Assembly: GCA_017415485.1 (NCBI GenBank)
Contig: JAFQGP010000075.1
Span: 635 to 64,634 of the forward strand
Direction: 5' to 3'
DNA length: 64,000 nucleotides
Source: Clostridia bacterium
Lineage (GTDB): Bacteria > Bacillota > Clostridia > Oscillospirales > CAG-272
The number at the start of each line of letters is the position of its first letter. Positions within the stretch are counted from its first letter, which is position 1. Positions 43,692 to 62,849 of this stretch are shown piece by piece. The position numbers were made by a program, and so were the translations under genes. A model generated the notes under the pieces. That model worked only from the letters and a program-made list of their open reading frames with translations. It was not told the origin of the DNA and made no database searches.

Positions 43692-45228
43692 CGTGGACCT
43701 CCTTTCTGTGCGCTTCTGCAAGCACTCTGCGTTCGGGAACGAGTCCTTCGGGCAGTCTGTCAAGATATTCCGCTGTGCTGATGTGACCGCCTTCGAGAAG
43801 CTTGTCGAGCACGCTCAAAGTTCCCGATGCGGAATAGCGAGCCGAATCGCAAACGTCGATCTTCGCGCAAAGAAGCAGGGAATGAAGGCTTGAGGGAAAG
43901 ATCTTGCCAAAACCGTCGCGAGTGCGAAGAGGTCTGCCGTCGGGGCAGAAGCAGAGCGTCATATCTGCCCAAATGCAAGCCATTTGCTCGAGGCAGAGAT
44001 AAAGTGCACTTTGAACGTGCTCAAGCGCCTGCATGGATGCCTCGCGAAGTGCGAGGATCGCGCTTGTGTTGGTGGGATTGACGTTGCCGAGTGCGGTGTC
44101 CGTCGCTCCCGCAAGCTCCTTTGTCATCGCAACTGCTGTTTCGATCAGCTCGAGATAGCCCTCCTCGAGCTTGCCCGTGCCGACCACGGTTACCGCATCG
44201 GCAAGATTGCCTCCGCCAACAGCGCCGATCGCCTCGCCGATCTCGTTTGTCCATTCGGGAATACGGGTGCGGTCATAGATGACCTTTGAAAACGCCGTGT
44301 CGGTCATGTGCTTCATGAGCATTGCGTATGCACGGTTGATGTATTTCTGATTGGCGATCATTGAACTCACGGGCGAATTGCCGAAGAAGCAGTTTTTAGC
44401 TTTTTGCCAGGAAAAATGAGCGATGGGATAAAGCTTGCAGGGCGTTACGATACGCTTGATGAGGCAGTCGCGGGTGGATTTTTCAAACACTACCTTGCCG
44501 TTTTCGCGGAAGAATTTGATGAGGTAGGTCGCGCGTTCCTCGCCGCCCTCATATTCGGGCTCGTATTTTGCAAGCTCACCCGCGCCTTTTTCGGTAAGCT
44601 CGAATTTGCCGTCGGCGGTGATCTTGGATAAATCCTTCTCGGAAACTCCCGCGGCGCGAGCTTCGCGGCGAAGCTGATCGACGCTTGCTCTGCCCGAGAT
44701 GATTATGTAATCCTGCGACTGAATGTCGGGATTGGTGACGTCGGCGGGGAAGACGTTGGCGGAATCGAGCGTTTCAGTCACGATGTCGCCCATCCAACCG
44801 TCGCATCCGCGTGAATCGGCGTCCCAGGAGCAGTAAAGAAGTCCGTCGCCCGAGAGAGCTGCGTCGTAAAGCAGACTGTAGATCACGCTTTGCAGACGCG
44901 AATGCTCCCAACGGTATGCGGCGTTTTCGGTGAGCAGATCGATTGCCTTTCTGATCCTTTCCGCTTCTGCGGAATTTGGCGCGAAGGGTAGGTTTTCGTC
45001 CGAATACGTTATCTTGACGTCGCCGACGGCGGCACTTGAAACGAGATAATCAACTATACGGCTGATGACGTTGAAGACGGGTTTGGGAAGTCCTTCGCCG
45101 CCGCGCCATTGGTCGCCTCGGTAAAACCGCTCGTTTTCGGCTATTCGCGAGTAAAGACCGATCTGTCTTTTGTAGTTCCTACCGGCTTCATACTGCCGCC
45201 AGGTCTTGATTTGTGATGTTTTGGTCAT
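43675..45228 (-). CDS. putative portal protein
   Basis: 517 aa. N-terminal ..ENERFYRGDQW.. is the type of motif seen in portal/connector proteins. Position within the packaging/head gene order. Confidence 0.65.
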   Translation of the reverse strand: MTKTSQIKTWRQYEAGRNYKRQIGLYSRIAENERFYRGDQWRGGEGLPKPVFNVISRIVDYLVSSAAVGDVKITYSDENLPFAPNSAEAERIRKAIDLLTENAAYRWEHSRLQSVIYSLLYDAALSGDGLLYCSWDADSRGCDGWMGDIVTETLDSANVFPADVTNPDIQSQDYIIISGRASVDQLRREARAAGVSEKDLSKITADGKFELTEKGAGELAKYEPEYEGGEERATYLIKFFRENGKVVFEKSTRDCLIKRIVTPCKLYPIAHFSWQKAKNCFFGNSPVSSMIANQKYINRAYAMLMKHMTDTAFSKVIYDRTRIPEWTNEIGEAIGAVGGGNLADAVTVVGTGKLEEGYLELIETAVAMTKELAGATDTALGNVNPTNTSAILALREASMQALEHVQSALYLCLEQMACIWADMTLCFCPDGRPLRTRDGFGKIFPSSLHSLLLCAKIDVCDSARYSASGTLSVLDKLLEGGHISTAEYLDRLPEGLVPERRVLAEAHRKEVHDGRND

Positions 45229-45242
45229 TGTTCCTCCTCTGT

Positions 45243-46976
45243 TTACTTTGCTGAAAGAATGACGCTGTAAATGACGGCGGGCGAGTCTGTCTCAACGATC
45301 AAACGAAGCTTTTTGAATCGCGGCATCGGTATGCGGCAAGAGAATTGCTCGCGTCCTCCGCCTGCCTTGCCGTGAAGGGGCGCCGTCACACGCTCGCCTT
45401 TTTCGGTTTCAAGAGTCAATGTGCCGCTCCCGCCCGAAAGATCGTATTCGAGCACCACGGCGGCGCTCCTTTTTGTTTTCTCGGGGCATCCGAAATCCAA
45501 AAAGTGAGTTACAAGCTTTGATTTGATCGGGAACACTTCGTCCGACTCGTTGTCATTCGTGAGATCGTCGAAAAATACGTATATGCAACCACCTCTTGAG
45601 AATGCGGGCAGATTGCCGTAGCGGAAGAGCCTTTCGGCAAAGATCCCGCGATAGACGGTCCATGCTTTCCGCGCCAGATCGTAAATAAGGAGCCTGCCCT
45701 CGCTGTCTTCGGCGTCTGCGATGAAGATCTTTTGTTTTTGCGGCAGAGAAAGCATTGATATTTTTTCCGAATCTTTGGGGATGAGAGCCGATACCTCATC
45801 CGACAGCATCGAAGCACTGCACTCGTCGCGAACGCCCGATTGAGAATGCCAGCGCCAAAGTCTGCCGCAAAAGTATGTTATCGGGTCGTTGTCGAAATAT
45901 GCGGAGCTGGGGATATATTCGGCTCCGATCGCTGAATTCAGCAGAAAGCTTTGCGGCTTCAGAGCCTCGGTATTTGCTTCGTCGCCGTTCCAATCGATGA
46001 ACCAGGCATCCTTTTCGGTGAAAAGTATCCCTCTGCCGTAATGATGAGCAATGTTTGTTATCGGATAAGCTCCGCTTCCGATGCAAAGTGCAGATGATAC
46101 GGGGACGTAAAGGGGGATGGCATTCGGTGCTGTAAGCTGTGAGTAGGAATGTGCGCTTCTGCTGACCGGCACGGATGAATACAGATTGCAGGAGATTCCG
46201 GGATTATAAAGGCAAAGCCGCTCGCCGCCGTTATTGCCGAAAACGAATGCTTTGGCGGCTTGCTTCATTCTGCTTGATTCCGAAGACTCAGGCGGCAATG
46301 TAAGCCAAAATGTGACATTCATCGTTCCGGTGAGCGAGATGGTGTGCGCAACCGATGGATATTCCTCGTCAAGATAAATATTGTTCTCGGCAAGGTCAAC
46401 CTCAGTTCCGTTGATCTCGACCCTGTCGATCGATGCTGCGTTGATACCAAGGTTGAATCTGTTGGTCGTTGACGTAACCGAATAGGATATTCGTATGCGA
46501 TCAGAAAGAAGATTCAGATCTTCGTTTATCGCACCGCAGGATCTTGGATGCCATCCGATACCGTAAAGGGGCGCATAGCCTTCAACAAGGATAAGCTCTC
46601 CGTCTTTCAGGTAATAAAAGACTTGCCCGTCGTGGACGTAGAGATTTCCGCCAAAGCAGAAGATATCCGCTTCTCCCTCGGCGTTAGCAAGATCGCCTAC
46701 TTTCTCGGAGCTGCCGCTTTCGATGTCGGTGATTATCAGCGAATCGCCTATAACGGAGTATAGCTTGTCGGCAAAATTGAAGCTTGCGCGCAGATTGCCC
46801 TGATACTCGGCAACCGAGGCGTAGCCCGCTCTCGTCTTCAGCGAGCCGTCGGCATCAAGATCGAGGTTTTCGGTAAGATAGCAATTCCCCCGCTGCCGGG
46901 TGCGGTCTATGCCGCCAAAGCCATCCTCATACATCCGCTCAACGCCGAGGGCATTTTTGAATTTGAAGCTCTTCAT
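45243..46976 (-). CDS. 577-aa phage-associated protein of unknown function
   Basis: Intact ORF tightly packed between terL and the portal gene. No motif recognised. Confidence 0.6.
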   Translation of the reverse strand: MKSFKFKNALGVERMYEDGFGGIDRTRQRGNCYLTENLDLDADGSLKTRAGYASVAEYQGNLRASFNFADKLYSVIGDSLIITDIESGSSEKVGDLANAEGEADIFCFGGNLYVHDGQVFYYLKDGELILVEGYAPLYGIGWHPRSCGAINEDLNLLSDRIRISYSVTSTTNRFNLGINAASIDRVEINGTEVDLAENNIYLDEEYPSVAHTISLTGTMNVTFWLTLPPESSESSRMKQAAKAFVFGNNGGERLCLYNPGISCNLYSSVPVSRSAHSYSQLTAPNAIPLYVPVSSALCIGSGAYPITNIAHHYGRGILFTEKDAWFIDWNGDEANTEALKPQSFLLNSAIGAEYIPSSAYFDNDPITYFCGRLWRWHSQSGVRDECSASMLSDEVSALIPKDSEKISMLSLPQKQKIFIADAEDSEGRLLIYDLARKAWTVYRGIFAERLFRYGNLPAFSRGGCIYVFFDDLTNDNESDEVFPIKSKLVTHFLDFGCPEKTKRSAAVVLEYDLSGGSGTLTLETEKGERVTAPLHGKAGGGREQFSCRIPMPRFKKLRLIVETDSPAVIYSVILSAK

Positions 46977-47029
46977 GTTTTTTCCTTTCGTTGTATTTTC
47001 ATTTTTTGACGCGGTACAGACGTTGTTTT

Positions 47030-48370
47030 TCAGTCAAAAAATGAATTTGATCGATCATTTCTGAATCGGAATTTGTGACCACCCTCCTCGGCTGCGGCGA
47101 AACGGCTCATAAGAGCGTATCTCAGCGCCTCGGGCGAGTGGGTGACCGAGTGCGGCTCGCCCGAGGCGTCTTCGGTGCGGTTTTTGTCGAAGAGCAGGGC
47201 GGGCAGGCATCTTATCAGCTCGCGGCAGCGCTCGCTGATGAGTAAGCCGGGGGTGCCGTCATCACGGTCGGCAAGATATTCGCGGACAACTCTCCATCCG
47301 GGAATGCGCCTGTCATCCGCAGGACGCATCGGCGGCATACCTTCTGCGGATTGCATGATCTCGAATCCGCTTTTTCCGCTGTCCTGCCTGCGGTTCCAAA
47401 GGTCGGGTGACGCAACGGCAAATTCCACACCCTTCCCTCGGCAAAGCTCGCTGATCTTTTTTGCGGCTTCGCCGAGCGTCAGGTTCGGGGCGCAGAATTC
47501 GTCGGTGACGTAGACCCTGCCCGTTCGGTCGCAGATGCAGATGTAGGCGGCGAGCATATCAAAACCGTAGTCAAAGGCGGCGATCGTGTGGTAAGCGCGC
47601 GGGATGGCTGTGGCGGCGCATACGTGACGAGCCTCATCGAATTCGGTAAAGAATTGCCCCTCGAAGATGTCCCATTTTCCGTAAAGCCAAGCCTCGCGCA
47701 AGCGTGTCGGCAAGGATTCCAGCCGCCGCACGTAGTCGGGATCGGCGCGGGTGAGGATATCGTTGTCGAAAACGGTTGCGGGGACGAAGGCGTAATCATC
47801 GGGATTCTCACCCGTGCGGTATTCGCGGTCGATAAAGAGCCTTTTGACCCAGGCGTGTCCTATCCCGCCGGGATTGCAGGTGAGATAGATCCGCCTTGGG
47901 CGGTCCGACGTGCCTCGCAGACAGGCCTTGAAGATCGAAAACTGATATTCGCTCAGTTGCGTTGCCTCGTCGAGGGCTATGACGTCGTATTCCTGACCCT
48001 GATAGCGGAGTGCATCGCGTTCCGAGGCGGCGTAGCCGAGGGTGATGCGGCTCCCGTTTTCAAGGGTCAGCTCTTTGTCGCGCTCGCTGTAAGAGAGGAT
48101 CGCTCCGTATTCGGCGAGCAGGGGAGAGAGATGATTTGAGCGGAGTTCGGGGAGAGTTCTTCGCACAAGCAGGCAGCGAAGTCCGGGGTATCGCAGGCAC
48201 ATAAGCACAAGCTTTCGCCTCAGCGCCCATGATTTTCCTCCACCGCGCGCTCCGCCATAGGCAACGTACTTTTGCCGACAGGCGAAAAATTCGCGCTGAC
48301 GGCTGTTCGGCGAGCCTTTTATGTGGAGCGCGCGTTCGGGTGCACTATCCGCCGTCTTCATAAGCGTCAT
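47030..48370 (-). CDS. terL: terminase large subunit
   Basis: Walker A YGGARGGGKS, Walker B YDVIALDEAT and coupling motif LTCNPGG. C-terminal nuclease-type acidic residues. 446 aa. Confidence 0.9.
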   Translation of the reverse strand: MTLMKTADSAPERALHIKGSPNSRQREFFACRQKYVAYGGARGGGKSWALRRKLVLMCLRYPGLRCLLVRRTLPELRSNHLSPLLAEYGAILSYSERDKELTLENGSRITLGYAASERDALRYQGQEYDVIALDEATQLSEYQFSIFKACLRGTSDRPRRIYLTCNPGGIGHAWVKRLFIDREYRTGENPDDYAFVPATVFDNDILTRADPDYVRRLESLPTRLREAWLYGKWDIFEGQFFTEFDEARHVCAATAIPRAYHTIAAFDYGFDMLAAYICICDRTGRVYVTDEFCAPNLTLGEAAKKISELCRGKGVEFAVASPDLWNRRQDSGKSGFEIMQSAEGMPPMRPADDRRIPGWRVVREYLADRDDGTPGLLISERCRELIRCLPALLFDKNRTEDASGEPHSVTHSPEALRYALMSRFAAAEEGGHKFRFRNDRSNSFFD

Positions 48371-50578: not shown

Positions 50579-51619
50579 ATGAACTTCAAGGTTATAAAGC
50601 GTCTTTCACTTGCGCTTGCTCTGCTTATTTGCCTTTCTGCGATCCTCACATCTTGCGGTGTCAAGCCAATCAAGAGCACGGAGGAGGAGTCGGCAGTTGT
50701 CGGCAAAATAGGAAAATATGATGTCAGATACGAGGAGCTTCGTTATCTCGTTCTCAATTTCAAGAGAGATATGGCGCTCAAATACGGCGAGGACATCTGG
50801 ACAGATCCCGCTAAAGCGGAAAGCTACAAGGACGAGCTTTGGTCGCTTGTCAGCGAAAATATCGTCAGCGATTACTATGCCGTTCAGGCGATGGCTGACT
50901 ACTATTACGTTGGCGGCGGTGCGGCGCTCATGATGAACGAAAAGCCCATCCTTGAGGCAGTTCAGGAGACTGTCGAGCTTGTCGTTGACGAATGCGGCGG
51001 ATTCAAGAAATATAAGGAGATGCTCGCTTCGGAGTATCTGACCGACAATCTTTTCCGTTTTTACAGCGCCGCAGAGGAATGCGCGAACGAGCTTTTCTAT
51101 ATCCTCGTGCGCGACCTTGGCGAAATTGAAAGCAGCGACGAATACATCGACGAATATTTCAAATCGGATGATTTCCTTCGCACCAATCACATCTTCATTT
51201 CGGGTGTGAGTGCGGAAAATCTCGCAAAGGCGAAGGATCTGCAGGCACAGCTTGCGGCAAGCGACAACAAGGAGCTTGAGATGATAATGCTCAAGGGCAT
51301 CCATTGCGCCGATTACACCATGACCACCACCCACGGCAAGTATTTTGCAAGATACACCTCCGATTACGGCGAGGAATACGAGCTTGCGGCGTTTGATCTC
51401 AAAATTAACGAGCTCAGCGACGTCGTTGAAGCAAGCAACGGATATTATATCATCCTCCGTCTTGAGCCCGAGGCCGACTACATCAAGCAGAATTATGAGG
51501 ATTTCAAGGACGACATCCTCGGCTCGGAGTTCAACAAGGTTCTTGCTTCCTATAAAGAGAGCCTCGAGTTCAGCCTCAACGATTACGGCAAGTCGATAAA
51601 TATTCTGGAGATCGAATAA
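50579..51619 (+). CDS. PrsA/SurA-like peptidyl-prolyl isomerase lipoprotein
   Basis: Lipobox LTSCG. SurA_N-like segment, then a PpiC-like segment (TNHIFISG ... ASNGYYIILRLE). Confidence 0.65.
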   Translation: MNFKVIKRLSLALALLICLSAILTSCGVKPIKSTEEESAVVGKIGKYDVRYEELRYLVLNFKRDMALKYGEDIWTDPAKAESYKDELWSLVSENIVSDYYAVQAMADYYYVGGGAALMMNEKPILEAVQETVELVVDECGGFKKYKEMLASEYLTDNLFRFYSAAEECANELFYILVRDLGEIESSDEYIDEYFKSDDFLRTNHIFISGVSAENLAKAKDLQAQLAASDNKELEMIMLKGIHCADYTMTTTHGKYFARYTSDYGEEYELAAFDLKINELSDVVEASNGYYIILRLEPEADYIKQNYEDFKDDILGSEFNKVLASYKESLEFSLNDYGKSINILEIE

Positions 51620-52666
51620 ATGGCTACAGTCAGCGGCGGAAGGCGCAGATCCTTCAAAAGCCGTCATCACACCCCGATGGGAAAGGGCGGAAAGCTGGCG
51701 GTCATATTCGTTTGCACCGCGCTCATCCTTTTTGTGCTTGCGGTCATGCTCGGCAACTACCTTCGCGGACTTGCGGAGGCGGTGATCGAGGACACGACCG
51801 AGGCATCGACAACGGAGGAAGAACTCTACTACTCAAACGCTCCCGACGAAGTGATCGCGATGGGAATATACTTTGGCGGTGAGTTTGCAACGGAAGGAAC
51901 CAAAACGCAGGCAGAAACCGCGGAGGAAGATACTTCCGTGCCCGAAGAACCGATCAGATTCGATTCGATCTCTCTGACCCTGCGCGAAAAGGACAGGGAA
52001 AGCGGCGAGATGCTTCTTGCCTATTCCTCGCCCATCAGCCTTGAATACGGCATCGACGTGACGGGTGAGACATCGCTTGAAGATGGATTGGCTGAAATTA
52101 AAAGCTTTTACGGCGAAAGAATACCGATCTGCGGCGTTTTTGAGATCGATCACCCCGAACTCCCCATGCCAAGCCGCGATATTATGCGAGCCTACGAGAT
52201 CGCGCTGATATGCGAGCTTATCGACGCGGGAATCGAAGAGATCGTTCTTGTCGGTTTCGATTTTGCGGTGGAGGAAGGCATTTCCTTCATTTCGGATATC
52301 TATGAGCAAAAGGGAAGAGGCACCGCCATCGGGCTTGCGCTCCCGTTTGATTTCTTTGTTGCCGCCGAGGCACAAGGAAAGCTCAGCGAGATCACCAAAA
52401 GATGCGGCTTCCTTGCGCTCGATCTCTGTTCTCTCAAGGTTCCCGCGCTTATGACCGCGGAATCGCTGATAACAGACCGAGTTTCAAGAACGCGCGCGAT
52501 CTGCCGCGAGTTTTCGGTCCGAGTGCTTCTCGGATGCGGTGGGAACCCCGATTGCGAATCCCAAACGCGGGCGGCTATGAATGCGGGCGCAGATAACGTG
52601 ATGACAGCACTTGGCATTTTTATGCCAAAGGAAGAAAATATTACCGAAGAGATAACGGCTGAGTGA
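51620..52666 (+). CDS. membrane-anchored hypothetical protein
   Basis: Start abuts the previous stop. Basic N-terminus plus one TM segment, then an acidic linker and a domain of about 230 aa. No motif recognised. Confidence 0.55.
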   Translation: MATVSGGRRRSFKSRHHTPMGKGGKLAVIFVCTALILFVLAVMLGNYLRGLAEAVIEDTTEASTTEEELYYSNAPDEVIAMGIYFGGEFATEGTKTQAETAEEDTSVPEEPIRFDSISLTLREKDRESGEMLLAYSSPISLEYGIDVTGETSLEDGLAEIKSFYGERIPICGVFEIDHPELPMPSRDIMRAYEIALICELIDAGIEEIVLVGFDFAVEEGISFISDIYEQKGRGTAIGLALPFDFFVAAEAQGKLSEITKRCGFLALDLCSLKVPALMTAESLITDRVSRTRAICREFSVRVLLGCGGNPDCESQTRAAMNAGADNVMTALGIFMPKEENITEEITAE

Positions 52667-52750
52667 TCGGCCGTTATTTTTATAAATTGCTTGACATTTG
52701 TCTTATTTTGTTGTAAAATATATAATAGTATAATATGCTCGGAGGACTAT

Positions 52751-53632
52751 ATGTCAAAGGTTATCAAAAGGAAGAAAAAAACGGGGAAGGCGTTGCTCGC
52801 GATCGCGCTTGTGATCCTTCTTACAGCCGTCATACTTCTCGGGGCTCTTGCGGGCGCCGCCTTTGTTGTTGCCAAGGGACCCGCAAAGTCGGAATCCGAT
52901 CGCCTTTGCGCTACTTTTGCAGAAAAGCGTTTCCCACTTGCGGGACTCTTTTTCAGTGCCGATGAGCTCGAAGCCTCGCTCTTCTATATGCCCCCCGCAC
53001 AGAAGAACGGCGAGATCAGCCTCTCGGAGAATTATCAAACAAAGCTTCATTATATAAATGACGCATCTTCCGCTTGGGATGCCGTTGTCATTACGGGAAT
53101 CTCACCCGATGACGTTGCTCTCGGCAAGAAAAACGACGGTGTTGCCGATGCAAAATACGCCTTTGGTCTTACGGGCGATGTTGATGCCTTTATCATCGGC
53201 GATTATATTTCCTATCGCGGCGAAGACGGCGAGATATACTGCTTCTGCGCGATGGGTGATGACGGAGTGCTTGATATTGGCGCAAAAACTCTTTATGAGG
53301 CGGCAAATTCGGGCTACCTTTGGGGTATTTCGGTCGATCGCGTGCTTATCGCGGGCGGCTCTCCCGAGAATTCTCTCGGCGGCGGTTATTCCTCGCGCGC
53401 CGCTATCGGTCAGGCGGCTGACGGCTCTCTGATCCTCATTTTTGCAAACGACCGCGGGTTCTATCCCTCGGGTATCACATATTCCGAGCTTGCTTCGCTT
53501 ATGTATGAGTATGGTGCTGTAAGTGCCGCTGCGATCCGTGCCGAGGGCGCGTTTTACGCAGACGGCATCGGTCAGCTCGGCTCGAAGAGCGAGAACGGAT
53601 TCTCTCTTGTAGTGAAGGGAGGTGCCAACTGA
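52751..53632 (+). CDS. phosphodiester glycosidase family (DUF2233/NAGPA-like) protein, membrane anchored
   Basis: Start at MSKVIKRKKK after GGAGG. The C-terminal SRAAIGQAADGSLILIFANDRG...ITYSELASLMYEYGAVSAAAI matches the family pattern. Confidence 0.65.
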   Translation: MSKVIKRKKKTGKALLAIALVILLTAVILLGALAGAAFVVAKGPAKSESDRLCATFAEKRFPLAGLFFSADELEASLFYMPPAQKNGEISLSENYQTKLHYINDASSAWDAVVITGISPDDVALGKKNDGVADAKYAFGLTGDVDAFIIGDYISYRGEDGEIYCFCAMGDDGVLDIGAKTLYEAANSGYLWGISVDRVLIAGGSPENSLGGGYSSRAAIGQAADGSLILIFANDRGFYPSGITYSELASLMYEYGAVSAAAIRAEGAFYADGIGQLGSKSENGFSLVVKGGAN

Positions 53633-55524
53633 TGTCGGAAAACAATCTTCCCAAGAATAATCCCGAAGAGATCGGTAAGGTGAAAAATATCATATCAATG
53701 TCCGAGACCTCGGGCAAGCGCGGTGACGTGAATTCCAAGATCGGCATCGGGCTTGACGCGCAGTTTGCGGGCAAGGAGAGAAGAAGGCACCCCAAGGCGA
53801 ACGCGCTTCTCAAGGGTCTGCTTGCTTATTTCAGCGCCGCAGTACTTGTAATCGGGATCCTCACCGTTGTCGCGTGGCGGCTTTTCGAGATCCGCGAGGC
53901 GGGTCGCGCCGACCTTTTTGTTGAAAATTATATCGCGGAAAAGGATATCGAGGGCTGGCGTCAGCAGCTTAGATTGAATCTGCCGAATACCTATCCCGCT
54001 TATGAGGACGCCTCAAAGTTAGCTTACGACGTTCTCTCACCCGTGCTTGAGCTCGGCGAGATCACGTATCTGCGAAGAATTACTCCCTCGGCGGAGGGAT
54101 ATCCCGTTTATGAACTCTTCTCGGACGGCACACATTTCGCCGCGCTCGTTATTTCCGACAGTTCAGTCGGTCTTTTCTCGACGGGTGAATGGCAGGCGGT
54201 GCGCGTTGAGTTTGATATTGATTTCTTTGACAGCGTCGAATTCCCCGAATACCGCGTGATCCTCCCCGCGGGCGCGTCACTCACCGTCAACGGTGCGGCG
54301 ATCGATCCCGCTATGAAGGAAAAAAAGCGAGCGACATATCCCGCGCTTTCGATAGCGGAGAAGGGGCACGATGTTGCTCCCTGCGACATCTACGTTTTCA
54401 ATGACGTGTATTTCCTCCCCGAGCTTTCCGCAACGCTTGAAGGCGCGAGCCTTGTTTGCGAGCAGATGGGCGAGGGCGAGTACTTCTTCTATTACCCCGA
54501 AAGCGCAATGCATTCGATCAGCGTCACAGTCCCCGTCGGCGTTGATGCATACGTGAGCGGAATCAAACTCACAGAGGAATGGGCAAGCCGCACGGAGATC
54601 GACGGCGAGCTTGGCGCGCTTGACGACGGCGGAACGGGAACTCTGCCACGCCTCAGCGTCTGGACGGTCGGCAACCTCTTCGGCGAGGTCGAGGTCGAGG
54701 CGAAGATTGGCAAAACCGAGGTCGCGCTGCTGTCGAACGAGGGCGGAAACTATAAGTTCGACACCCCCGCGGAGTGCAAGTATACTCTCACAGTCATCCT
54801 TCCCACGGGTGCAGAGCTTTTCGTCAACGGAAAGGCGATAGCCGCCAACGATAAAACCTCCGCGACCGCCGAGGACATTGCCTACGGTTTCACCGCGCTT
54901 GGCAGATATGAGGTCTCCGAGCTCGGAGTTATCGAGGGCGGAGTGCCGAATTTCGATAAATACACCCTCACGGGTTATCTTGCCGAGCCGAACGTGACCG
55001 CAAAGCTTGGCGGCGTTGAGTTGCCGCTTGCGGGCAAGAGCGTTTCGGGCTACAAAATGAGATGCGATTTTGATTACACCGCGGGCGACGTTTTCGATGC
55101 CGAGCGCATTGCGGCGGCTGAAAAGTTTGCCGAAAGCTATCTCGCATATATCTGCGGCGGCGGTGCTTGGCAGGATCCCGCCAACGAAAAGGCTTTCAAC
55201 GATAATTACAACGCTATCAAGGCGCAGATGATCGAGGGCACGGCTGGCTACGTCGGCGTGATGGAATCCTACCGCGACGTCAACCTGATGCCGAAGTACG
55301 ATTCCTTCACCGTCGATTCAAAGACCGCGACCGATCTTGTCGCATACACCGAAAAGAGCCTCTCCTGCCGCGTTGAATTCAGCGTAACGCGCACGAGAAC
55401 GGTTGAAGGCGTACAGCAGACAGATACACTCACCGGCAGCATCAGCGTTCTGCAGGTCCTCTACAAGGGCGAATGGCGAGTTTGGAGCTTTGTGTATTCT
55501 CCTGCGGAGAACAGTGGTCAGTGA
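53632..55524 (+). CDS. large membrane-anchored hypothetical protein
   Basis: ATGA-type overlap with the preceding gene. One TM segment (LLAYFSAAVLVIGILTVVAW). The 550-aa extracytoplasmic part has no recognised motif. Confidence 0.55.
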   Translation: MSENNLPKNNPEEIGKVKNIISMSETSGKRGDVNSKIGIGLDAQFAGKERRRHPKANALLKGLLAYFSAAVLVIGILTVVAWRLFEIREAGRADLFVENYIAEKDIEGWRQQLRLNLPNTYPAYEDASKLAYDVLSPVLELGEITYLRRITPSAEGYPVYELFSDGTHFAALVISDSSVGLFSTGEWQAVRVEFDIDFFDSVEFPEYRVILPAGASLTVNGAAIDPAMKEKKRATYPALSIAEKGHDVAPCDIYVFNDVYFLPELSATLEGASLVCEQMGEGEYFFYYPESAMHSISVTVPVGVDAYVSGIKLTEEWASRTEIDGELGALDDGGTGTLPRLSVWTVGNLFGEVEVEAKIGKTEVALLSNEGGNYKFDTPAECKYTLTVILPTGAELFVNGKAIAANDKTSATAEDIAYGFTALGRYEVSELGVIEGGVPNFDKYTLTGYLAEPNVTAKLGGVELPLAGKSVSGYKMRCDFDYTAGDVFDAERIAAAEKFAESYLAYICGGGAWQDPANEKAFNDNYNAIKAQMIEGTAGYVGVMESYRDVNLMPKYDSFTVDSKTATDLVAYTEKSLSCRVEFSVTRTRTVEGVQQTDTLTGSISVLQVLYKGEWRVWSFVYSPAENSGQ

Positions 55525-55748
55525 TTAGTGGTCAGTGGACAGAAAGAAGCGGTTTTTGTTTAACATAACCAAAACCGAATAATCAAAATTGTGCAATAAT
55601 ACAAAATAGCAAGTCAGGAAAAAGTATTTCTTGACTTGCTTTTTTGTTTATGATAAAATAAAATTAGGGTAATTTTTATAAAAAGTGTAACCAAAGTGGT
55701 TTTTTCGTGTCTATATAAGTAGAGGTAACCGAAAAGGAGGTAAAGTCT

Positions 55749-57182
55749 ATGAAAAAATTAATATCTACGATCCTCGTCCTCACCTTTGTTTTAGCTGCCT
55801 TGAGTGCACTTACGCCAAGCATTTCGGCAAAGAGCGCGACGATCAGCGAGAGGGAAGCAAGAGAATTGGTGGAAAGAGCATATCAGTTTTTCTGTGATGC
55901 CAGAGTAGATGACTGGGACGATAATCTTGTTGATTACAAATCCGAGGATATTTGTGAGATTTATATCTCGCATATTGACGAAACGCTGATTTACAGACCG
56001 GTAGATGAGTCCAAGCTTCCCGGCGGATCGTATTCCGCAATGCGCGAGGCGGCGAAAGAAATCTATACCGAGAAAATCGCGGAACTCGCTTATCAGTTCT
56101 CGGGCTCAAGTCCGGGCGGTGTGACCCATAATTTGCCTATGTATCATATTGCGGAAAGCGGAAAGGTTTACGGATACGGGCTTCAAGAGAATTCTTCACA
56201 TAATTTATATATTTATACACCGAGCCTTCAATACAATAGATCTTCCGAAGGAGAGGTTCAGCTGAGTATTATTTCGGGAGACTCAAAAAGTGCGACTGCG
56301 CTCATAACAATGAGCTTTTATTGGGCGGACGGTCCACGTTCTTCATTCTGTGAAGCAGTAGAATGCAAATTTGAAAAAACAGCGCGCGGTTGGAGAATTG
56401 CGGAATCCGAATTCAGTTTACTTTTGTCTTCGTCCAAAACCGCACTTGATGATTACCGCAAGGCTAATCCCGAAAAAGTCAATCCCGAGGTCCTGAAGCT
56501 TACGGATGCCGAGGCAAAGGATACCATTGACGAAACTGTAATGGATTATATGATCGAAATGTATTGCGGTTACTACGAAAGCTATCTTGATTACGTAAAG
56601 CACGAACAGAAGGAAGCCCAGGAGATAGTAAAAGAGATCACAGCCTCCGATGGCTCAAAGCGCACTATGAGGTATGTTGAGTATTTACCGAATATAGGTA
56701 TAGATGATATTGGATGGGCTTATTTTACCGACGAGTTTTACAAGATGGTTTTAACTCAAGCGTATCACGACAATTCGTTTGATATGTTCATAACCGAAGG
56801 GGATATAACTTATATGGCTGTGATCGAGGGGGCGGAAGCGCTTTCGTTTGTGTATGATCCTAATGATGTTGTTGTCCGCGTTATTGAATCCACAGATAAA
56901 GAAGCAACAGCGTATGTTTATTGCGGCTTGAAAAAGGACGGCAAGGTTGTTCCGATATACGTTGAATGCAAATTTGAAAAGGATGAAAGAAATTCGCGAT
57001 GGTATATTGCAGACTCTTCATTTGTCGATATGCTGACCTCGGCTGACGAATTTGAGTATACCGTCGCCGAAGCACCCAAAACCGGTGATGCGGCATATAA
57101 TACCATCGCCCTCTGCCTCGGCGGAATTGCCATAATTATGTCGGCGATCTGCCTTGTACGCCGCAAAAGAGAGATACTTTAA
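55749..57182 (+). CDS. secreted, sortase-anchored protein, paralog 1 of 4 (two-module form), function unknown
   Basis: Signal peptide ..SISAKS. Two modules, each ending ECKFEK..(G)W(R/Y)IA(E/D)S.F. C-terminal EAPKTGD + hydrophobic stretch + RRKREIL. Confidence 0.85.
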   Translation: MKKLISTILVLTFVLAALSALTPSISAKSATISEREARELVERAYQFFCDARVDDWDDNLVDYKSEDICEIYISHIDETLIYRPVDESKLPGGSYSAMREAAKEIYTEKIAELAYQFSGSSPGGVTHNLPMYHIAESGKVYGYGLQENSSHNLYIYTPSLQYNRSSEGEVQLSIISGDSKSATALITMSFYWADGPRSSFCEAVECKFEKTARGWRIAESEFSLLLSSSKTALDDYRKANPEKVNPEVLKLTDAEAKDTIDETVMDYMIEMYCGYYESYLDYVKHEQKEAQEIVKEITASDGSKRTMRYVEYLPNIGIDDIGWAYFTDEFYKMVLTQAYHDNSFDMFITEGDITYMAVIEGAEALSFVYDPNDVVVRVIESTDKEATAYVYCGLKKDGKVVPIYVECKFEKDERNSRWYIADSSFVDMLTSADEFEYTVAEAPKTGDAAYNTIALCLGGIAIIMSAICLVRRKREIL

Positions 57183-57209
57183 TTTTTATCAAGAAAGGAC
57201 GGTAAAACG

Positions 57210-58676
57210 ATGAAAAAGATTTTATCAATTATTTTAGCCCTCACCTTCTGCTTTGCCGCCTTTTCGGCACTCGCACCAAGTGCCTCGGCAAAGAGCGCGA
57301 CGATCAGCGAGAGAGAAGCGAAAGAATTGGTGGCAAAGGCATATGAATTCTACTGTGATGCCATTGTTGACAGTTGGATAGATAACGGTAATCTTGTTGA
57401 CTATCAGTCGGACGATGCCTTTAACATTTACAATTCGGAGCTTGACAGAACTTTACTTTATTACCCCGTATATGAATCAAAGCTTCCCGGAGGCTCGTAT
57501 TCCGAGATGCGCGAGGTCGTTAAAGAGATATATACCGATGATCTTGTTGCCGACGATCGCCAGATCTCGGCATATTCATGGCGAAAGGATTCCGATGATT
57601 CGTACTTGAACGATAATATTTTTGTGCCGATTTACCACGTTGCAGAAAACGGCAAGGTTTACGCACAAGGGCTTAAAGACTATGCGGATTACAGCGTATT
57701 TATTTCCGCAACTGATCCCGGTTATTTTTATGAATCGTTCGATGGAGAAATACATCTGAAAATAAAATCGGGTGACTCAAAAAGCGCAACCGCGTTTATT
57801 ATCATGGGTTTTTATCACGGTGACAGTGCCCGTTCGCAGTATCACGGAACTGTTGAATGTAAATTTGAAAATACAGCGGACGGATGGCGGATAGCAGAAT
57901 CAGAATTCAGCGTTTTGATGGCGTCATCTCCGCTTGGACTTTCTGTCTATCGCCAACTTAACCCCGAAGAAACCGATCCGGATGTTTACAAGCTTACCGA
58001 TTTCGAGGCAAAGTATATTGTTGACGGTTATATAGCCGATTACATATTGGAAAGGTATTGCAATTATTATCAGAATTACGTTGATTATGCCAAGAGCTCA
58101 CAAAAAGAAGTTAAAGAAATCGTAAAAGAGATCACAGCTTCCGACGGTTCCAAGCACACGATGAGGTACGTGGAATATCAGCCGGGGATTTATTTCCTTG
58201 ATGATGCATGGGAATATTATCTGGATAATGATTTCGTCAAAGAACACGTGCTGAAAGCATATCGGGACAATGAATTTGATATGTTTATCACTGAAGGCGG
58301 TACAGAATATATAGCTGTACTTGATGAGGACGATCTTTTGTTTGTGTATGACCGCGATAAGGCATTGGTAGAGGTTATCGAATCTACCGATACAGAAGCC
58401 ACCGCGCGCGTATATTGCGGCCTCAAAAAGGACGGCAAGGTTATTCCGATATATGTTGAATGTAAATTTGAAAGATTCGACACCCTTATCCAATGGAATC
58501 TTGCTGATTCCGCGTTCGTAGATATGGTGACCTCTGTTGACGGATTTGAATACACCGTTGGCGAAGCACCTCCCACGGGCGACAACGCATTTGACACCAT
58601 CGCCCTCTGCCTCGGCGGAATTGCAATAATTATGTCGGCGATCTGCCTTGTTTGCCGCAAAAGAGAGATACTTTAA
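57210..58676 (+). CDS. secreted, sortase-anchored protein, paralog 2 of 4 (two-module form)
   Basis: Same architecture. C-terminal EAPPTGD...CRKREIL. The 27-bp junction with its RBS is shared with genes 3 and 4. Confidence 0.85.
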   Translation: MKKILSIILALTFCFAAFSALAPSASAKSATISEREAKELVAKAYEFYCDAIVDSWIDNGNLVDYQSDDAFNIYNSELDRTLLYYPVYESKLPGGSYSEMREVVKEIYTDDLVADDRQISAYSWRKDSDDSYLNDNIFVPIYHVAENGKVYAQGLKDYADYSVFISATDPGYFYESFDGEIHLKIKSGDSKSATAFIIMGFYHGDSARSQYHGTVECKFENTADGWRIAESEFSVLMASSPLGLSVYRQLNPEETDPDVYKLTDFEAKYIVDGYIADYILERYCNYYQNYVDYAKSSQKEVKEIVKEITASDGSKHTMRYVEYQPGIYFLDDAWEYYLDNDFVKEHVLKAYRDNEFDMFITEGGTEYIAVLDEDDLLFVYDRDKALVEVIESTDTEATARVYCGLKKDGKVIPIYVECKFERFDTLIQWNLADSAFVDMVTSVDGFEYTVGEAPPTGDNAFDTIALCLGGIAIIMSAICLVCRKREIL

Positions 58677-58703
58677 TTTTTACCAAGAAAGGACGGTAAA
58701 ACA

Positions 58704-59951
58704 ATGAAAAAGTTTTTATCATTCATTTTAGCTCTTACTTTCTGCTTTGCCGCCTTTTCGGCATTCGCGCCGAGTGTTTCGGCTAAAAGCGAGACGATCA
58801 GCGAAAGTGAAGCGAAGGACTTGATAGTAAAGGCGTATGAATTCTGCCGGAATGTCAGAGCGGGAGAATCCCGTATTCACGAAAATTCGGAAGAATATAG
58901 AATAGAGGTGAAATTCGGCGAAAAATATTCGGAACGGGAATATTATTGGCTTGCCAAAGAGGAAAATCTTCCCGGCGGATCGTATGAAAAAATGTGCGAA
59001 TACGTCGAGACTATCTATACCAAAGAGGCTGCTCCGACGGCATATGCTTACAAGCTGGATGGTACTGTGAATCCGAGCGATAATATGTGGGATGGTCTTT
59101 ATCCGCTGTTCTACAGAAACGAGAACGGTGTTTTATATGCTTCCACCAGCTACTTGAATTATCGAGGCGCGTATCTTTTTCCCGATGCGGAGGGCGTTGA
59201 ATTTGAAATAGTATCGGGAGATTCAGATACGGCAAAAGCTAATGTATCCGTAAAATTCTTTCACGGCGACGGTCCGAGACCTTATACCTACGACATTGTC
59301 GAATGTCTGTTTGAAAACACCCCCGACGGTTGGAGAATTGCGGAGTCGGAATTCAGCATTATAATGGCGACCCAAAAGGCATATTTCGATGATTACCGCG
59401 CAAAAAATCCCGATGCGGCGAATCCTTCGGGTGGAGGACTTTTGGTTGCCGACGTTGAGGAAATACTGCGCGCCGTGATCGGTGGTTTGAATTACAATAT
59501 CGACAAATACGAATATTATGAATTCTGCACGGAGCGGGCGGTTGAAAAATTATCCTCGGGATGCAAGGCTGTATCTGAAAAGGTAGGGGATGAGTATCAT
59601 GTCACAGTGAACGGTGTATTTCCAATAGCATTTGTTTACGATCCGGGCAATACTCGAATTGCGATAGCTGAATCTACGGATAAGGAAGCGAGCGTGGCTA
59701 TTTGGTTGGGCTTGAAATACGGAAACACATCTTATCCCACCGGAATCGTGTGCGAATTCAAAAAGGGACATTCCTTGTGGATGCTTGACGATTGTGAATT
59801 TGTCGATATGTTGATAACAGGAGAGGGCTTTGATGGCGAAGCACCTGTGACCGGTGACAACGCATACGATACCATCGCCCTCTGCCTTGGCGGAATTGCA
59901 ATAATTATATCGGCGATCTGCCTTGCTCGCCGCAAAAGAGAGATACTTTAA
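58704..59951 (+). CDS. secreted, sortase-anchored protein, paralog 3 of 4 (divergent second module)
   Basis: Same signal peptide and first module (..VECLFENTPDGWRIAESEF). C-terminal EAPVTGD...RRKREIL. Confidence 0.85.
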   Translation: MKKFLSFILALTFCFAAFSAFAPSVSAKSETISESEAKDLIVKAYEFCRNVRAGESRIHENSEEYRIEVKFGEKYSEREYYWLAKEENLPGGSYEKMCEYVETIYTKEAAPTAYAYKLDGTVNPSDNMWDGLYPLFYRNENGVLYASTSYLNYRGAYLFPDAEGVEFEIVSGDSDTAKANVSVKFFHGDGPRPYTYDIVECLFENTPDGWRIAESEFSIIMATQKAYFDDYRAKNPDAANPSGGGLLVADVEEILRAVIGGLNYNIDKYEYYEFCTERAVEKLSSGCKAVSEKVGDEYHVTVNGVFPIAFVYDPGNTRIAIAESTDKEASVAIWLGLKYGNTSYPTGIVCEFKKGHSLWMLDDCEFVDMLITGEGFDGEAPVTGDNAYDTIALCLGGIAIIISAICLARRKREIL

Positions 59952-59978
59952 TTTTTACCAAGAAAGGACGGTAAAACG

Positions 59979-60770
59979 ATGAAAAAGATTTTATCATTAA
60001 TTTTAGCCCTCACCTTCTGCTTTGGCGCTTTTTCAGCATTAGCGCCGAGCGTTTTGGCTGCCGATGCGGAGTTTACACAGAAAGATGCAAAAGCTCTGAT
60101 CGATGCGGCGGTTGCATCGAGGGAGAAGCTATCAAATAATTATTATAGAAATTATATGAGTTACGCCCAAGCTCCTGAGAGTCTTGGCTATGATCACGAT
60201 TGGCTCGAGAGGTTGGTTTGGGTTGAGGGAAGGGAAGAACTTTATCTAACCTTGATGGAGCATTTGCTCCCCGGCGGTTCATATGAAGGCTTCCTTGATG
60301 ATACTCATGGCATTTTTACTGACGCGGTTTCCGAGCGTTATTGCTCGAAGTATTATTACAATAATAGTTTTGAGCTTTTTATTATGAGTGAACACTACGG
60401 CTATAGGATGATTACTGCACATGACACGATGGTACACCTCGGATTTTATTACGTTCCCGAAAACGGAGTAGTTAAACTTACCGAGGTAACGGACGACCGC
60501 GCGAAAGCTTTGGTCTATTGTCAAAAAGCAATCGAACCGGAAAATATTGATATAGTTGTCGAGTGTGTATTTGAAAAGACCGCGGATGGTTGGCGTATTG
60601 CTGATTCCGATTTTGCCGATATGTTATGCTCTTACAGTGATTATAGCTATACTGTTTGCGAAGCACCTTCAACCGGTGACAATGCATTCGACACCATCGC
60701 CCTCTGTCTCTGCGGGATGGTGGTTGCACTCGCAGTCCTCGGAAGTATGCGAAGAAAACGCGAAGAATAA
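59979..60770 (+). CDS. secreted, sortase-anchored protein, paralog 4 of 4 (single-module form)
   Basis: One module ending VECVFEKTADGWRIADSDF. C-terminal EAPSTGD...RRKREE. Confidence 0.85.
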   Translation: MKKILSLILALTFCFGAFSALAPSVLAADAEFTQKDAKALIDAAVASREKLSNNYYRNYMSYAQAPESLGYDHDWLERLVWVEGREELYLTLMEHLLPGGSYEGFLDDTHGIFTDAVSERYCSKYYYNNSFELFIMSEHYGYRMITAHDTMVHLGFYYVPENGVVKLTEVTDDRAKALVYCQKAIEPENIDIVVECVFEKTADGWRIADSDFADMLCSYSDYSYTVCEAPSTGDNAFDTIALCLCGMVVALAVLGSMRRKREE

Positions 60771-60852
60771 TTTATCAAAGGAGCAAGTCTGCGGATTTGC
60801 TCCTTTTGCGTGCGAGAGTTATGTGAGGATTAAGTTAAAGTAAAGTACGTGT

Positions 60853-60997
60853 CTGTAGGGGACGGCGCCTCGACGTCCCGAGCCAAATTAAATTATTGCT
60901 GTGCATTGAATCAAGAACATAACATTATATTTTCTGAATTTAATCAACGCAATAATATCGTGCTGTCGCGGGACGTCGAGGGCGCCGTCCCCTACGG
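60853..60997. repeat. long hairpin/inverted repeat: GC-rich arms of 28 and 29 nt around an AT-rich 88-bp centre
   Basis: CTGTAGGGGACGGCGCCTCGACGTCCCG (60853-60880) versus CGGGACGTCGAGGGCGCCGTCCCCTACGG (60969-60997). One indel between the arms. Confidence 0.8.
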
Positions 60998-61146: not shown

Positions 61147-62220
61147 ATGAGCGAAGTTAAAAACGTACAGAAAACAGGCTGCGCCGTCATCGGCTACGGC
61201 GGAATGGGCGGCTGGCACACCAGATATATTCTTGAGAGTGACGTGGCGTACCTTTGCGGTATCTACGACATCAATCCCGTGAAGGTCGAGCTTGCAAAGA
61301 CCAACGGTATCCGCGCGTATGCAACACTCGAGGAGCTTCTTGCGGATGACGAGATCAAGTTCGTTACCATTGCAACTCCCAACGAGGTCCACGCCGAGAT
61401 CGCCATCAAGGCTCTCCGCGCGGGCAAGCACGTTATCACCGAAAAGCCCGTTGTTCTCAACTCGAAGGAGCTTGAGGAAGTCATCGCCGTTGCAAACGAG
61501 TGCGGCAGGCTCTTCACCGTTCACCAGAACCGCCGTTGGGACATCGACTTCCGTATGATGCGCGAGGCTTATCTTTCGGGCAAGCTTGGCAAGGTTTTCT
61601 CCTGTGAATCGAGGATCCACGGCTCGCGCGGCGTTCCCGGCGACTGGAGAGGCAAGCCCGAGCACGGCGGCGGAATGATCTATGACTGGGGCGTTCACCT
61701 CATCGACCAGATGCTTCTCATCTTCGAGGACAAGAAGATCAAGCAGGTGCGTTGCCTCTGCGAACATATCACCAACAAGGAAGTTGACGACGGCTTCAAG
61801 CTCGACATCATCTTCGAGGACGACACCGTCGGTCACATCGAGGTCGGCACTCACCACTTCATCTCGCTTCCCAGATTCTATATGACCGGTACCGCAGGCG
61901 CGGCTATCATCAACGATTGGCGCGACCGCACTCGTGTTATTTCCTGCAAGACCGTTGAGGAGGGCGAAGTCAAGCCCGTCGTCACCGCCGCAGGTATGAC
62001 CAAGACCATGGCTCCCCGCGCCGAGGACACTCTCGAGGAGAGCTACATAGAACGTATGGACTCCGACGTTCACGATTACTACCGCAACTTCACCGCAGCT
62101 ATCCGCGGCGAGGCAGAGCAGATCGTCAAGCACAACCAGATGCGCCGCGTTCTCCGCGTCATCGAGGCTGCATTCGAGTCTGATAAGCTCGGCAAGACTG
62201 TTGATTTTGAGGAAGTATAA
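61147..62220 (+). CDS. Gfo/Idh/MocA-family oxidoreductase
   Basis: Start at MSEVKNVQKTG. GCAVIGYGGMGGWH Rossmann motif and TEKP motif. Confidence 0.85.
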   Translation: MSEVKNVQKTGCAVIGYGGMGGWHTRYILESDVAYLCGIYDINPVKVELAKTNGIRAYATLEELLADDEIKFVTIATPNEVHAEIAIKALRAGKHVITEKPVVLNSKELEEVIAVANECGRLFTVHQNRRWDIDFRMMREAYLSGKLGKVFSCESRIHGSRGVPGDWRGKPEHGGGMIYDWGVHLIDQMLLIFEDKKIKQVRCLCEHITNKEVDDGFKLDIIFEDDTVGHIEVGTHHFISLPRFYMTGTAGAAIINDWRDRTRVISCKTVEEGEVKPVVTAAGMTKTMAPRAEDTLEESYIERMDSDVHDYYRNFTAAIRGEAEQIVKHNQMRRVLRVIEAAFESDKLGKTVDFEEV

Positions 62221-62222
62221 GA

Positions 62223-62849
62223 ATGACTTACCTTTTCGATTTTGACGGCACTCTCGTTGATTCGATGCCGACCTATGCCTCGCAGATGCTCCGCATTCTC
62301 GAGGAAACCGGCACACCTTATCCCGATGACGTAATAAAGATCATCACCCCCCTCGGCTACATCGGCACGGCGAAGTATTACCTCGAGCTCGGTATGCCTC
62401 TCACCTTTGAGGAGATCACCAAGCGTATGGGTGATTATATGTACGAGCAGTATGCGAACAATATCCCCGCAAAGGAAACCGTTCGCGAAACTCTCCTTGC
62501 CCTCCGTGCGCGTGGCGACAGCATCAACGTGCTGACTGCAAGCCCGCATCTGACACTCGATCCCTGCCTCAAGCGCCTCGGACTTTTCGATCTTTTCGAC
62601 AACGTTTGGTCCTGCAACGATTTCGATATGACCAAAGCCGACCCGCAGATCTACGTCGAGGCTGCAAAGCGACTCGGCAAGAGCGTCGAAGAAGTCACCT
62701 TCCTCGACGATAACCTCGGCGCCTGTCGTACCGCAAAGATCGCAGGTATGAAAGTCTACGGCGTCTACGACGATTCCTCGAAGGAATACACAAACGAAAT
62801 GAGCAGCGAATTTGACGGGTATATCGTCAAATTCAGCGAGCTGCTTTAA
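62223..62849 (+). CDS. HAD-superfamily hydrolase
   Basis: MTYLFDFDGTLVDS (DxDGT motif I), LTAS (motif II region) and FLDDN (motif IV). Confidence 0.85.
   Translation: MTYLFDFDGTLVDSMPTYASQMLRILEETGTPYPDDVIKIITPLGYIGTAKYYLELGMPLTFEEITKRMGDYMYEQYANNIPAKETVRETLLALRARGDSINVLTASPHLTLDPCLKRLGLFDLFDNVWSCNDFDMTKADPQIYVEAAKRLGKSVEEVTFLDDNLGACRTAKIAGMKVYGVYDDSSKEYTNEMSSEFDGYIVKFSELL

Follow-up and report, generated by a model that had tools for sequence, protein, structure and literature searches.

A tandem array of predicted wall-anchored proteins with IseA-like modules and homogenised gene junctions in a gut Clostridia bacterium

Layout of the array and architecture of its proteins

The 64,000-nucleotide stretch of DNA analysed here (the window; Clostridia bacterium, contig JAFQGP010000075.1) carries at positions 55749-60770 (+) four paralogous open reading frames (ORFs), all in the same orientation and hereafter called g1 to g4, which encode predicted wall-anchored proteins (Table 1). 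Each protein consists of a signal peptide, one or two modules of ~200 aa and a C-terminal sorting signal. The predicted signal peptides, read from the translations, comprise MKK, a hydrophobic core and an AxA site (SASA/KS, VLA/AD); a lipoprotein reading was rejected because there is no lipobox and the residue before the Cys is Phe. The modules were delimited by using a local iterative jackhmmer hidden Markov model (HMM) seeded with the mature part of g4. By this model, g1 and g2 each hold two full modules (aa 28-235 and 248-441 in g1; aa 28-241 and 259-452 in g2), g3 holds a full module (aa 28-231) followed by an N-terminally truncated one (aa 258-378, model positions 92-196 only), and g4 holds a single module (aa 28-228). 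The g4 module matches both halves of g1 and g2 (E 4e-33 and 5e-19), indicating that all modules are homologous. An earlier note on this DNA had assigned two modules to each of g1-g3 and one to g4, with an LPGGSY motif in every module; the layout stands for g1, g2 and g4, the second module of g3 is a truncated one, and the N-terminal modules and g4 have the motif, which the C-terminal modules of g1 and g2 lack. Among 124 proteins of the family, two modules were found in 112, three in 9, and one in 3.

The pentapeptides APKTG, APPTG, APVTG, and APSTG lie 35-36 residues from the C-terminus, each preceded by E and followed by D, ~20 hydrophobic residues, and RRKRE. A sorting signal is recognised by a pentapeptide that lies 17-45 residues from the C-terminus and precedes a hydrophobic stretch and a basic tail (PMC4155245), and by these sequence features the array proteins carry an LPXTG-like sorting signal in addition to a signal peptide. 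The first motif position varies among 120 homologues (APxTG in 76, SPxTG in 35, NPxTG in 5, and PPxTG in 1). The anchor HMMs score below threshold (PF00746, E 0.23, 11.9 against 20 bits; NF033846, 16.2 against 23.5 bits), and PF00746 is matched by 3 of 56 distant relatives, with E down to 2.3e-6. In C. difficile, SrtB cuts (S/P)PxTG between T and G, and its substrates carry SPKTGD, a membrane stretch, and a basic tail (PMC4155245). Judged from their sequences, the array proteins are most likely linked covalently to peptidoglycan by a sortase via an [A/S/N]PxTG-D signal. Elsewhere in the window, a 467-aa ORF at 25763-27166 (+), in which no credible Pfam domain was found, has the C-terminal end SPDTGDNAIFFIVALVAVATLGVAAVSFKKREN (SPDTGD, a hydrophobic stretch, and KKREN) and is a second predicted sortase substrate; this second ORF with an SPDTGD signal suggests that the organism has a sortase of that specificity.

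The three intergenic spacers are 27 nt each, TTTTTA[TC]CAAGAAAGGACGGTAAAAC[GA], with 1-2 differing positions and a ribosome-binding site (RBS, AAAGGA) inside. The promoter-like site upstream of g1 is the top-scoring sigma-70-like site of the region (10 of 12 matches), and a terminator scan of the region found no terminator within the array spacers. The hairpin 3' of g4 falls under the T-run rule of the scanner and was read by eye instead. With one promoter-like site, terminators at both ends only, and 27-nt spacers that contain an RBS, the four genes look like a single operon. An identical copy of the g2 protein (P0001) is present on 12 contigs. The GC content at third codon positions (GC3) is 0.43-0.47 in the array genes versus 0.54-0.73 in the flanking genes (52691-55524 and 61147-62849), and the contrast is repeated in four other genomes with the locus described below (L007, L009, L011, and L012), with the exception of one array gene at 0.57; on this comparison, low GC3 is an array-specific signature conserved across species.

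Table 1. Positions of the array genes, their parts, the junction tracts, and the predicted transcription signals, numbered along the window.
Feature	Position	Strand	Description
Terminator of the upstream unit	55608-55640	+	Intrinsic terminator of the NAGPA / 630-aa unit; 14-bp stem, then T-run; parts the array from the upstream genes
Promoter-like site	55631-55659	+	TTGACT, 17-nt spacer, TAAAAT, extended -10 TG; consensus match only
g1	55749-57182	+	477 aa; signal peptide ("first-gene" type) 55749-55829; module A 55830-56453; module B 56490-57071
g1 sorting signal	57072-57182	+	APKTGD, hydrophobic stretch, RRKREIL
Junction tract J12	57102-57290	+	g1 tail, 27-nt spacer (RBS AAAGGA), g2 signal peptide; 91.0% / 89.4% identical to J23 / J34
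g2	57210-58676	+	488 aa; signal peptide 57210-57290; module A 57291-57932; module B 57984-58565
g2 sorting signal	58566-58676	+	APPTGD...
Junction tract J23	58596-58784	+	g2 tail, spacer, g3 signal peptide; holds the crossover interval 58739-58766 relative to strain L001
g3	58704-59951	+	415 aa; chimeric signal peptide 58704-58784; module A 58785-59396; truncated module B 59475-59837
g3 sorting signal	59841-59951	+	APVTGD...
Junction tract J34	59871-60059	+	g3 tail, 27-nt spacer, g4 signal peptide
g4	59979-60770	+	263 aa; signal peptide 59979-60059; single module 60060-60662 (used for the structure model)
g4 sorting signal	60663-60770	+	APSTGD with "last-gene" tail ...RRKREE
Terminator-like hairpin 3' of g4	60780-60807	+	GGAGCAA...TTGCTCC, then TTTT; read from sequence

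Homogenised junctions and exchange of cores

The three 189-nt junction tracts are 89.4-91.5% identical in pairwise, ungapped comparison. The final 87 nt of g1-g3 are 92-93% identical and the core regions of g1-g4 share 30-57% protein identity, which agrees with the earlier observation that the last ~80 nt of g1-g3 and the 27-bp junctions are near-identical while the cores have diverged. Synonymous sites show the same contrast. Over 25-codon windows, the synonymous divergence (dS) is 0.06-0.19 in the last 23 codons of g1-g3, as against ~1 or higher, often saturated, in almost all core windows; likewise, the proportion of synonymous differences (pS) is 0.05-0.15 in the tails (last 26 codons, g1-g3) versus 0.66-0.73 in the cores (Fisher p 8e-7 to 2.5e-9). 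The signal peptides of g2-g4 have a pS of 0.32-0.44 (Fisher p versus core 0.001-0.014), whereas the pS of the g1 signal peptide and of the g4 tail does not differ significantly from that of the core. The g1 signal peptide is a distinct type with 62-64% nucleotide identity to those of g2-g4, and the g4 membrane tail (CLCGMVVALAVLGSMRRKREE) is distinct as well, with 29-33% nucleotide identity to the other tails in ungapped comparison. The near-identity of signal peptides and C-terminal signals that had been described for all four proteins therefore holds at the junctions and fails at these two outer ends. On these measures, the homogenised unit is the gene junction (tail, spacer, and next signal peptide) and not the gene ends as such; since this unit straddles two neighbouring genes, neither the signal peptide of the first gene nor the tail of the last gene is homogenised.

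Related loci were retrieved with an alignment of the four array proteins. The gene order (HPr kinase, two PrsA-like genes, NAGPA, a ~630-aa gene, the array, GFO_IDH_MocA, and HAD) is conserved, and in the six assemblies the arrays differ. The window has genes of 477, 488, 415, and 263 aa; L001 and L002, the flanks of which are 97.7-98.4% identical to the window, have genes of 477, 488, 663, 415 (445 aa as called in L002), and 264 aa; L007/L010 (goat-colon metagenome-assembled genome, MAG) have genes of 498, 469, and 417 aa; and L009 (472, 495, and 662 aa), L011 (467 and 488 aa), and L012 (613 and 487 aa) differ again. Array size at the conserved locus is 2-5 genes, with differing cassette sets among related genomes, and the copy-number variation across strains that the earlier note had suggested looking for is present, as the near-identical strain L001 has a fifth gene.

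The spacer and the internal tail are genome-specific, also in the syntenic array of another species. Both internal genes of L007, for example, end in the tail ...IAVCLGGMALVMSVIALIPRKKRETL, and the spacer there reads CTTTAGTTATGAAAGGACGGTAAAAC[GA]; within one genome, internal tails share 92-97% identity, as opposed to ~41% between the window and L007. The "last-gene" tails form a class of their own, in which the g4 tail is 89% identical to that of L001 gene 5 and 68% identical to that of L007 gene 3. The window and L007 share 86% identity in the "first-gene" signal peptide, though the cores of their first genes are non-orthologous (30% aa identity), and this signal-peptide type is also found in the first array genes of L007, L009, L011, and L012. 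The opposite case is g3, whose core is the orthologue of that of the third L007 gene (55% aa identity) but whose tail is of another type. The end types thus track array position and not core orthology, and the cores behave as cassettes.

Compared with L001, the window is without the 663-aa three-module gene, a one-gene indel. Positions 58574-58784 of the window align to both L001 junctions (2/3 and 3/4), and when the three sequences are aligned, informative sites agree with junction 2/3 as far as 58739 and with junction 3/4 from 58766 on. This switch places a crossover in the 27-nt interval 58739-58766, within the signal-peptide-coding part of the junction tract, and implies that the g3 signal peptide is chimeric. 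Signal peptides and sorting signals are under functional constraint, and the similar ends could in principle reflect purifying selection on export and anchoring signals alone, with no recombination. We regard this explanation as refuted: synonymous divergence in the tails is 5-14 times below that in the cores, more than purifying selection on its own can account for; the non-coding spacer is nearly the same throughout a genome, whereas its first 10 nt vary from genome to genome; the internal tails are alike within and dissimilar between genomes; and the indel crossover maps inside a junction tract. The earlier note had proposed concerted evolution or conversion of the ends, to be abandoned if synonymous sites there were as diverged as in the cores. 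They clearly are not in the tails and spacers and partly are not in the signal peptides of g2-g4, and the proposal is further borne out by the genome-specific tails and spacers, the position-bound end types, and the crossover in the junction tract.

These comparisons show, at the level of sequence, how the array evolves. Homologous recombination keeps the junction tracts (~190 nt) alike, and the same tracts serve as crossover sites at which whole cores are deleted, inserted, or exchanged as cassettes; the outcome is 2-5 genes with different cassette sets at one conserved chromosomal locus.

Between the window and L001, dS is 0-0.14 for g1-g3 and for three of the four flanking genes measured. 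For g4, dS is 0.72 and dN/dS (dN, nonsynonymous divergence) 0.25, with low-divergence segments at its two conserved ends. Because g4 is diverged at synonymous sites too, this pattern indicates that the last cassette was replaced by a diverged allele between the strains, rather than that it evolved under rapid positive selection. Between-strain dN/dS is 0.14-0.25, and no value above 1 was found in any between-strain comparison. Positive selection on the cores was rejected for the between-strain comparison, in which these ratios are below 1; between paralogues, dS is saturated. A diversification of the cores driven by pressure from host, phage, or immunity is hence not demonstrated, considering both these ratios and the synonymous divergence of g4. 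In addition, the HAD hydrolase gene (62223-62849, compared with L001 16990-17616) has a dS of 0.43, its neighbours ~0.09-0.14, which suggests a second recombined segment close to the array.

Module fold, family range, and predicted function

An AlphaFold2 (AF2) model of the g4 module was built with the 40-module alignment and reached a predicted local distance difference test score (pLDDT) of 91.2 and a predicted template-modelling score (pTM) of 0.88; a single-sequence g4 run gave a pLDDT of only 38. The model consists of a 30-residue N-terminal helix, a hairpin, two short helices, and a curved antiparallel sheet. When it was compared with the PDB by using Foldseek, the top three matches were IseA/YoeB structures (8wt4_A, 2rsx, and 8i2e_A; E 1e-5 to 2e-5, probability 1.0), with a target-normalised TM-score (TMt) of 0.59-0.63 over ~185 aligned columns. 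NTF2-like domains came next (PBP2a N-terminal domain, RsgI9), at E of at least 5e-3 and over 50-70 columns only, and SnoaL_4 was matched weakly by 3/40 and 3/56 sequences (E 1e-3 to 1e-2). A relation to IseA or NTF2-like folds, offered as a guess in the earlier note, is thus favoured by structure prediction, with IseA ahead.

For comparison at the profile level, an IseA sequence checked against 8wt4_A (100% identity) and a 15-sequence Bacillus IseA alignment served as the reference. With hhalign, a broad module profile (A6) aligned to the 15 Bacillus IseA sequences over its full length (probability 78.5%, E 1.7e-5, 147 columns). The sole invariant residue of the module, a Trp, aligns with the invariant Trp172 of IseA in this alignment and in that made with a narrower, window-clade profile (A3). 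PF16800 is matched by 15/96 family sequences (7/40 modules and 8/56 distant relatives), with E down to 1.4e-6, and a Bacillus IseA HMM run over all window ORFs matches only g3 and g2.

A word-indexed protein search returned 128 proteins, all annotated as "hypothetical" and none with a Pfam domain; the named sources are "Clostridia bacterium" MAGs. An exhaustive HMM search of 1.84 billion representative proteins, the kind of search that had been proposed for defining the family and its taxonomic range, found only 80 clusters at E <= 1e-3. Among complete members, almost all carry a signal peptide, 1-3 modules, and a [S/A/N]PxT[G/S/A]D + hydrophobic + RRRR sorting signal; one distant single-module member sits outside any array. 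The nearest named genome is Candidatus Flemingiibacterium sp. (88% identity to g1), and the habitat of the array-bearing relatives is the animal gut. No match was found with Foldseek against viral structures at E <= 0.001 or with tblastn against phage and plasmid collections; PADLOC gave no match for the array, and PHROGs gave only fragments at E > 1e-3. As delimited by these searches, the family has no name and is confined to one narrow group of uncultured Clostridia from the gut.

IseA blocks NlpC/P60 endopeptidases by an inserted, substrate-mimicking loop (PMC12700454; PMC7299342). Tai3 of Ralstonia is an immunity protein that blocks the type VI secretion system (T6SS) peptidoglycan-hydrolase effector Tae3, and IpdA of B. 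anthracis blocks the peptidoglycan deacetylase PdaN through a different part of the IseA fold (PMC12700454). A 2025 study proposes that the IseA fold is a readily evolvable scaffold for inhibiting cell-wall-active enzymes (PMC12700454). That all three characterised members of the IseA family inhibit such enzymes is the basis for considering the array modules as inhibitors or binders. The exposed modules, tethered to the wall, would then inhibit or bind enzymes by which the cell-wall polymer is cut or modified; the targets could be the cell's own autolysins or incoming hydrolases, and different cassettes would offer different binding surfaces or specificities. The reading that we prefer, with moderate confidence, is that of one operon of sortase-anchored proteins, remote homologues of IseA, which recombine as cassettes and are probably inhibitors or binders of cell-wall enzymes.

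Several observations weigh against this preferred reading. Its functional part is extrapolated from three distant relatives; no NlpC/P60 gene adjoins the array and no target enzyme was found; and the 64-kb window has no ORF >150 aa with the sortase signature T[LVI]xTC. No curated Pfam or NCBIfam family matches the array proteins above threshold: g3, the best window protein, reaches E 9e-5 and 22.9 bits with PF16800 (cut-off 29.9 bits) and E 4.5e-5 and 23.5 bits with NF058588 (cut-off 200 bits). The structural match is moderate, with TM-scores of 0.5-0.6, a root-mean-square deviation of 5-6 A, and a sequence identity of ~14-15%. Aligned to IseA over its full length, the narrower profile A3 gives a probability of 32.7% and E 4.7e-4. 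The module profile did not find IseA among PDB sequences at E <= 10, the profile and a single module gave chance matches only (E >= 0.2) against the same sequences, and a homologue search with A6 yielded 16 proteins, none of which bridges to PF16800. Finally, the PxGDGDNLLxW loop is invariant in the 15 Bacillus IseA sequences, and the aligned segment of the modules is variable and without the motif. Arai reportedly found in 2012, with the mutants G99P/G101P and D100K/D102K, that the GDGD loop is required for inhibition by IseA. In view of the sub-threshold HMM scores, the failure to retrieve IseA from PDB sequences, and the missing loop, we class the module as a remote relative within the IseA superfamily and not as a member of the IseA family proper.

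The same facts could be taken to mean that the resemblance to IseA is convergence, or a generic similarity of alpha+beta cones, and that the family is an unrelated novel domain, since every sequence-level match lies under curated thresholds, the module profile finds nothing among PDB sequences, and identity and TM-scores are low. We consider this unlikely, in that Foldseek matches IseA over the full length at E 1e-5, hhalign at E 1.7e-5 adds motif-level correspondences and the aligned invariant Trp, PF16800 recurs in 15/96 sequences, and the reciprocal IseA HMM picks only array ORFs in the window.

The proteins may instead be adhesins or ligand binders, in which the module is merely a stable scaffold for host glycans, mucus, other cells, or nutrients. 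Adhesins are very frequent among sortase substrates (PMC4155245), tandem domains and cassette variation are common in adhesins, the inhibitory loop of IseA is missing, and the next-best folds are envelope domains of the NTF2-like type that are not inhibitors (PBP2a N-terminal domain, RsgI9). Yet IseA gives the best structural and profile matches and the only ones over the full length, every characterised member of the IseA family acts on a cell-wall enzyme, and domain-library scans found no adhesin-type domains or repeats in the array proteins; the adhesin explanation is possible rather than probable. As regards enzyme inhibition, our preferred reading, a more specific version holds that the array is a recombining "immunity panel" of wall-anchored inhibitors, each cassette neutralising a different incoming wall-degrading enzyme. 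These enzymes might be competitor effectors, bacteriocins, or phage lysins from outside, or host enzymes, and the junction repeats would enable specificities to be gained, lost, or swapped; we hold this version to be doubtful.

The array might also form a variable surface coat, in which cassette exchange amounts to antigenic variation for phage-receptor masking or mimicry or for antibody evasion and the fold is irrelevant. The variation in copy number and cassette content between close strains, the conserved ends as recombination anchors, and the animal-gut habitat would fit such a coat. However, between-strain dN/dS (0.14-0.25) gives no sign of positive selection, the cassettes all lie in one operon without a switching element and would be co-expressed and not expressed one at a time, and there is no PADLOC or PHROGs match. 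A surface coat of this kind is very unlikely.

Surrounding genes and comparison with known systems

Upstream of the array, two adjacent, paralogue-sized genes at 50579-51619 and 51620-52666 (+), the first with weak PrsA/PPIase-like matches, are followed by the NAGPA (phosphodiester glycosidase) gene at 52691-53632 (+); a one-base overlap joins it to the start of the gene for a 630-aa membrane-anchored protein, for which no family match was found. The block 50579-55524 (+) lies upstream of the array in five of six assemblies, and L002 is cut within it. Phage-type genes occupy 43675-48370 (-), namely a P22-like portal (43675-45228), a 577-aa ORF, and a large terminase (47030-48370). The terminase also adjoins the HPr kinase gene in L001, L003, L009, L011, and L012, with an adjacent 140-aa gene in four of the five, and these conserved genes may be a prophage remnant or an element like a gene transfer agent (GTA). 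An ORF at 23973-25484 (-) with CHAP, SH3_3, and Listeria-Bacteroides repeat domains is likely a peptidoglycan hydrolase and, as such, a candidate target of the IseA-like modules. An AT-rich segment of ~85 nt, bounded by inverted repeats of ~27 bp (GTAGGGGACGGCGCCTCGACGTCCCG...; 60855-60995), separates the g4 terminator from the promoter of the GFO_IDH_MocA gene downstream. This element has a diverged copy in L001 and L002, is absent from L007, L009, L011, and L012, and looks like a small insertion of the miniature inverted-repeat transposable element (MITE) kind; a phase-variable inverton 3' of g4 was rejected, as the element differs between strains and is not inverted.

Until now, the known IseA-type proteins were small, free inhibitors of a single domain. 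The present locus is a new architectural and evolutionary variant of this known fold family, in that it puts an IseA-like fold in a new setting: predicted to be wall-anchored, duplicated within proteins, and encoded in an operon with recombining gene boundaries. If the modules are inhibitors, they would be the first tethered, modular, and exchangeable set of cell-wall-enzyme inhibitors and would offer scaffold variants to test. Regardless of function, the array is a clean natural case of junction-confined concerted evolution with a mapped crossover.

Tai3 and IpdA illustrate the reuse of the IseA fold: different cell-wall enzymes are blocked through different contact regions (PMC12700454). Neither was among the top 50 Foldseek matches of the g4 module, and both are single-domain soluble proteins encoded beside, or co-regulated with, their target, whereas the array has no evident target gene alongside. 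Like the SrtB substrates of C. difficile and the NCBIfam family NF033846 ("Rumino_NPXTG"), the array proteins have xPxTG, D, a hydrophobic stretch, and a basic tail; they differ in that the family most commonly has Ala at position 1, a form known here from sequence alone.

The closest comparison is with Bacillus subtilis IseA/YoeB (PF16800, Endopep_inhib; PDB 2RSX, 8I2E, and 8WT4). The iseA gene is a single, WalR-regulated Bacillus gene (PMC7299342), whereas the array genes form recombining tandem arrays in Clostridia. Both kinds of protein are secreted via a signal peptide, and by Foldseek they have the same overall fold (long N-terminal helix, short helices, and curved antiparallel sheet). 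They share a T/S-x-x-E/Q-A helix start and the motifs Y-x-x-x-I/V-Y/F-T-x-x-x-A and F-x-K-x-x-x-x-W-K/R-I/V. In contrast to IseA, a free single domain of ~158 aa, the array modules are ~200 aa long, occur 1-3 per protein in predicted sortase-anchored proteins, and are without the PxGDGDNLLxW inhibitory loop.

Tandem surface-protein arrays under concerted evolution form a general class with homogenised ends, diverged middles, and copy-number change by unequal crossing-over. The present array differs from that general class in that its homogenised unit spans the gene boundary and the type of each end tracks its position in the array.

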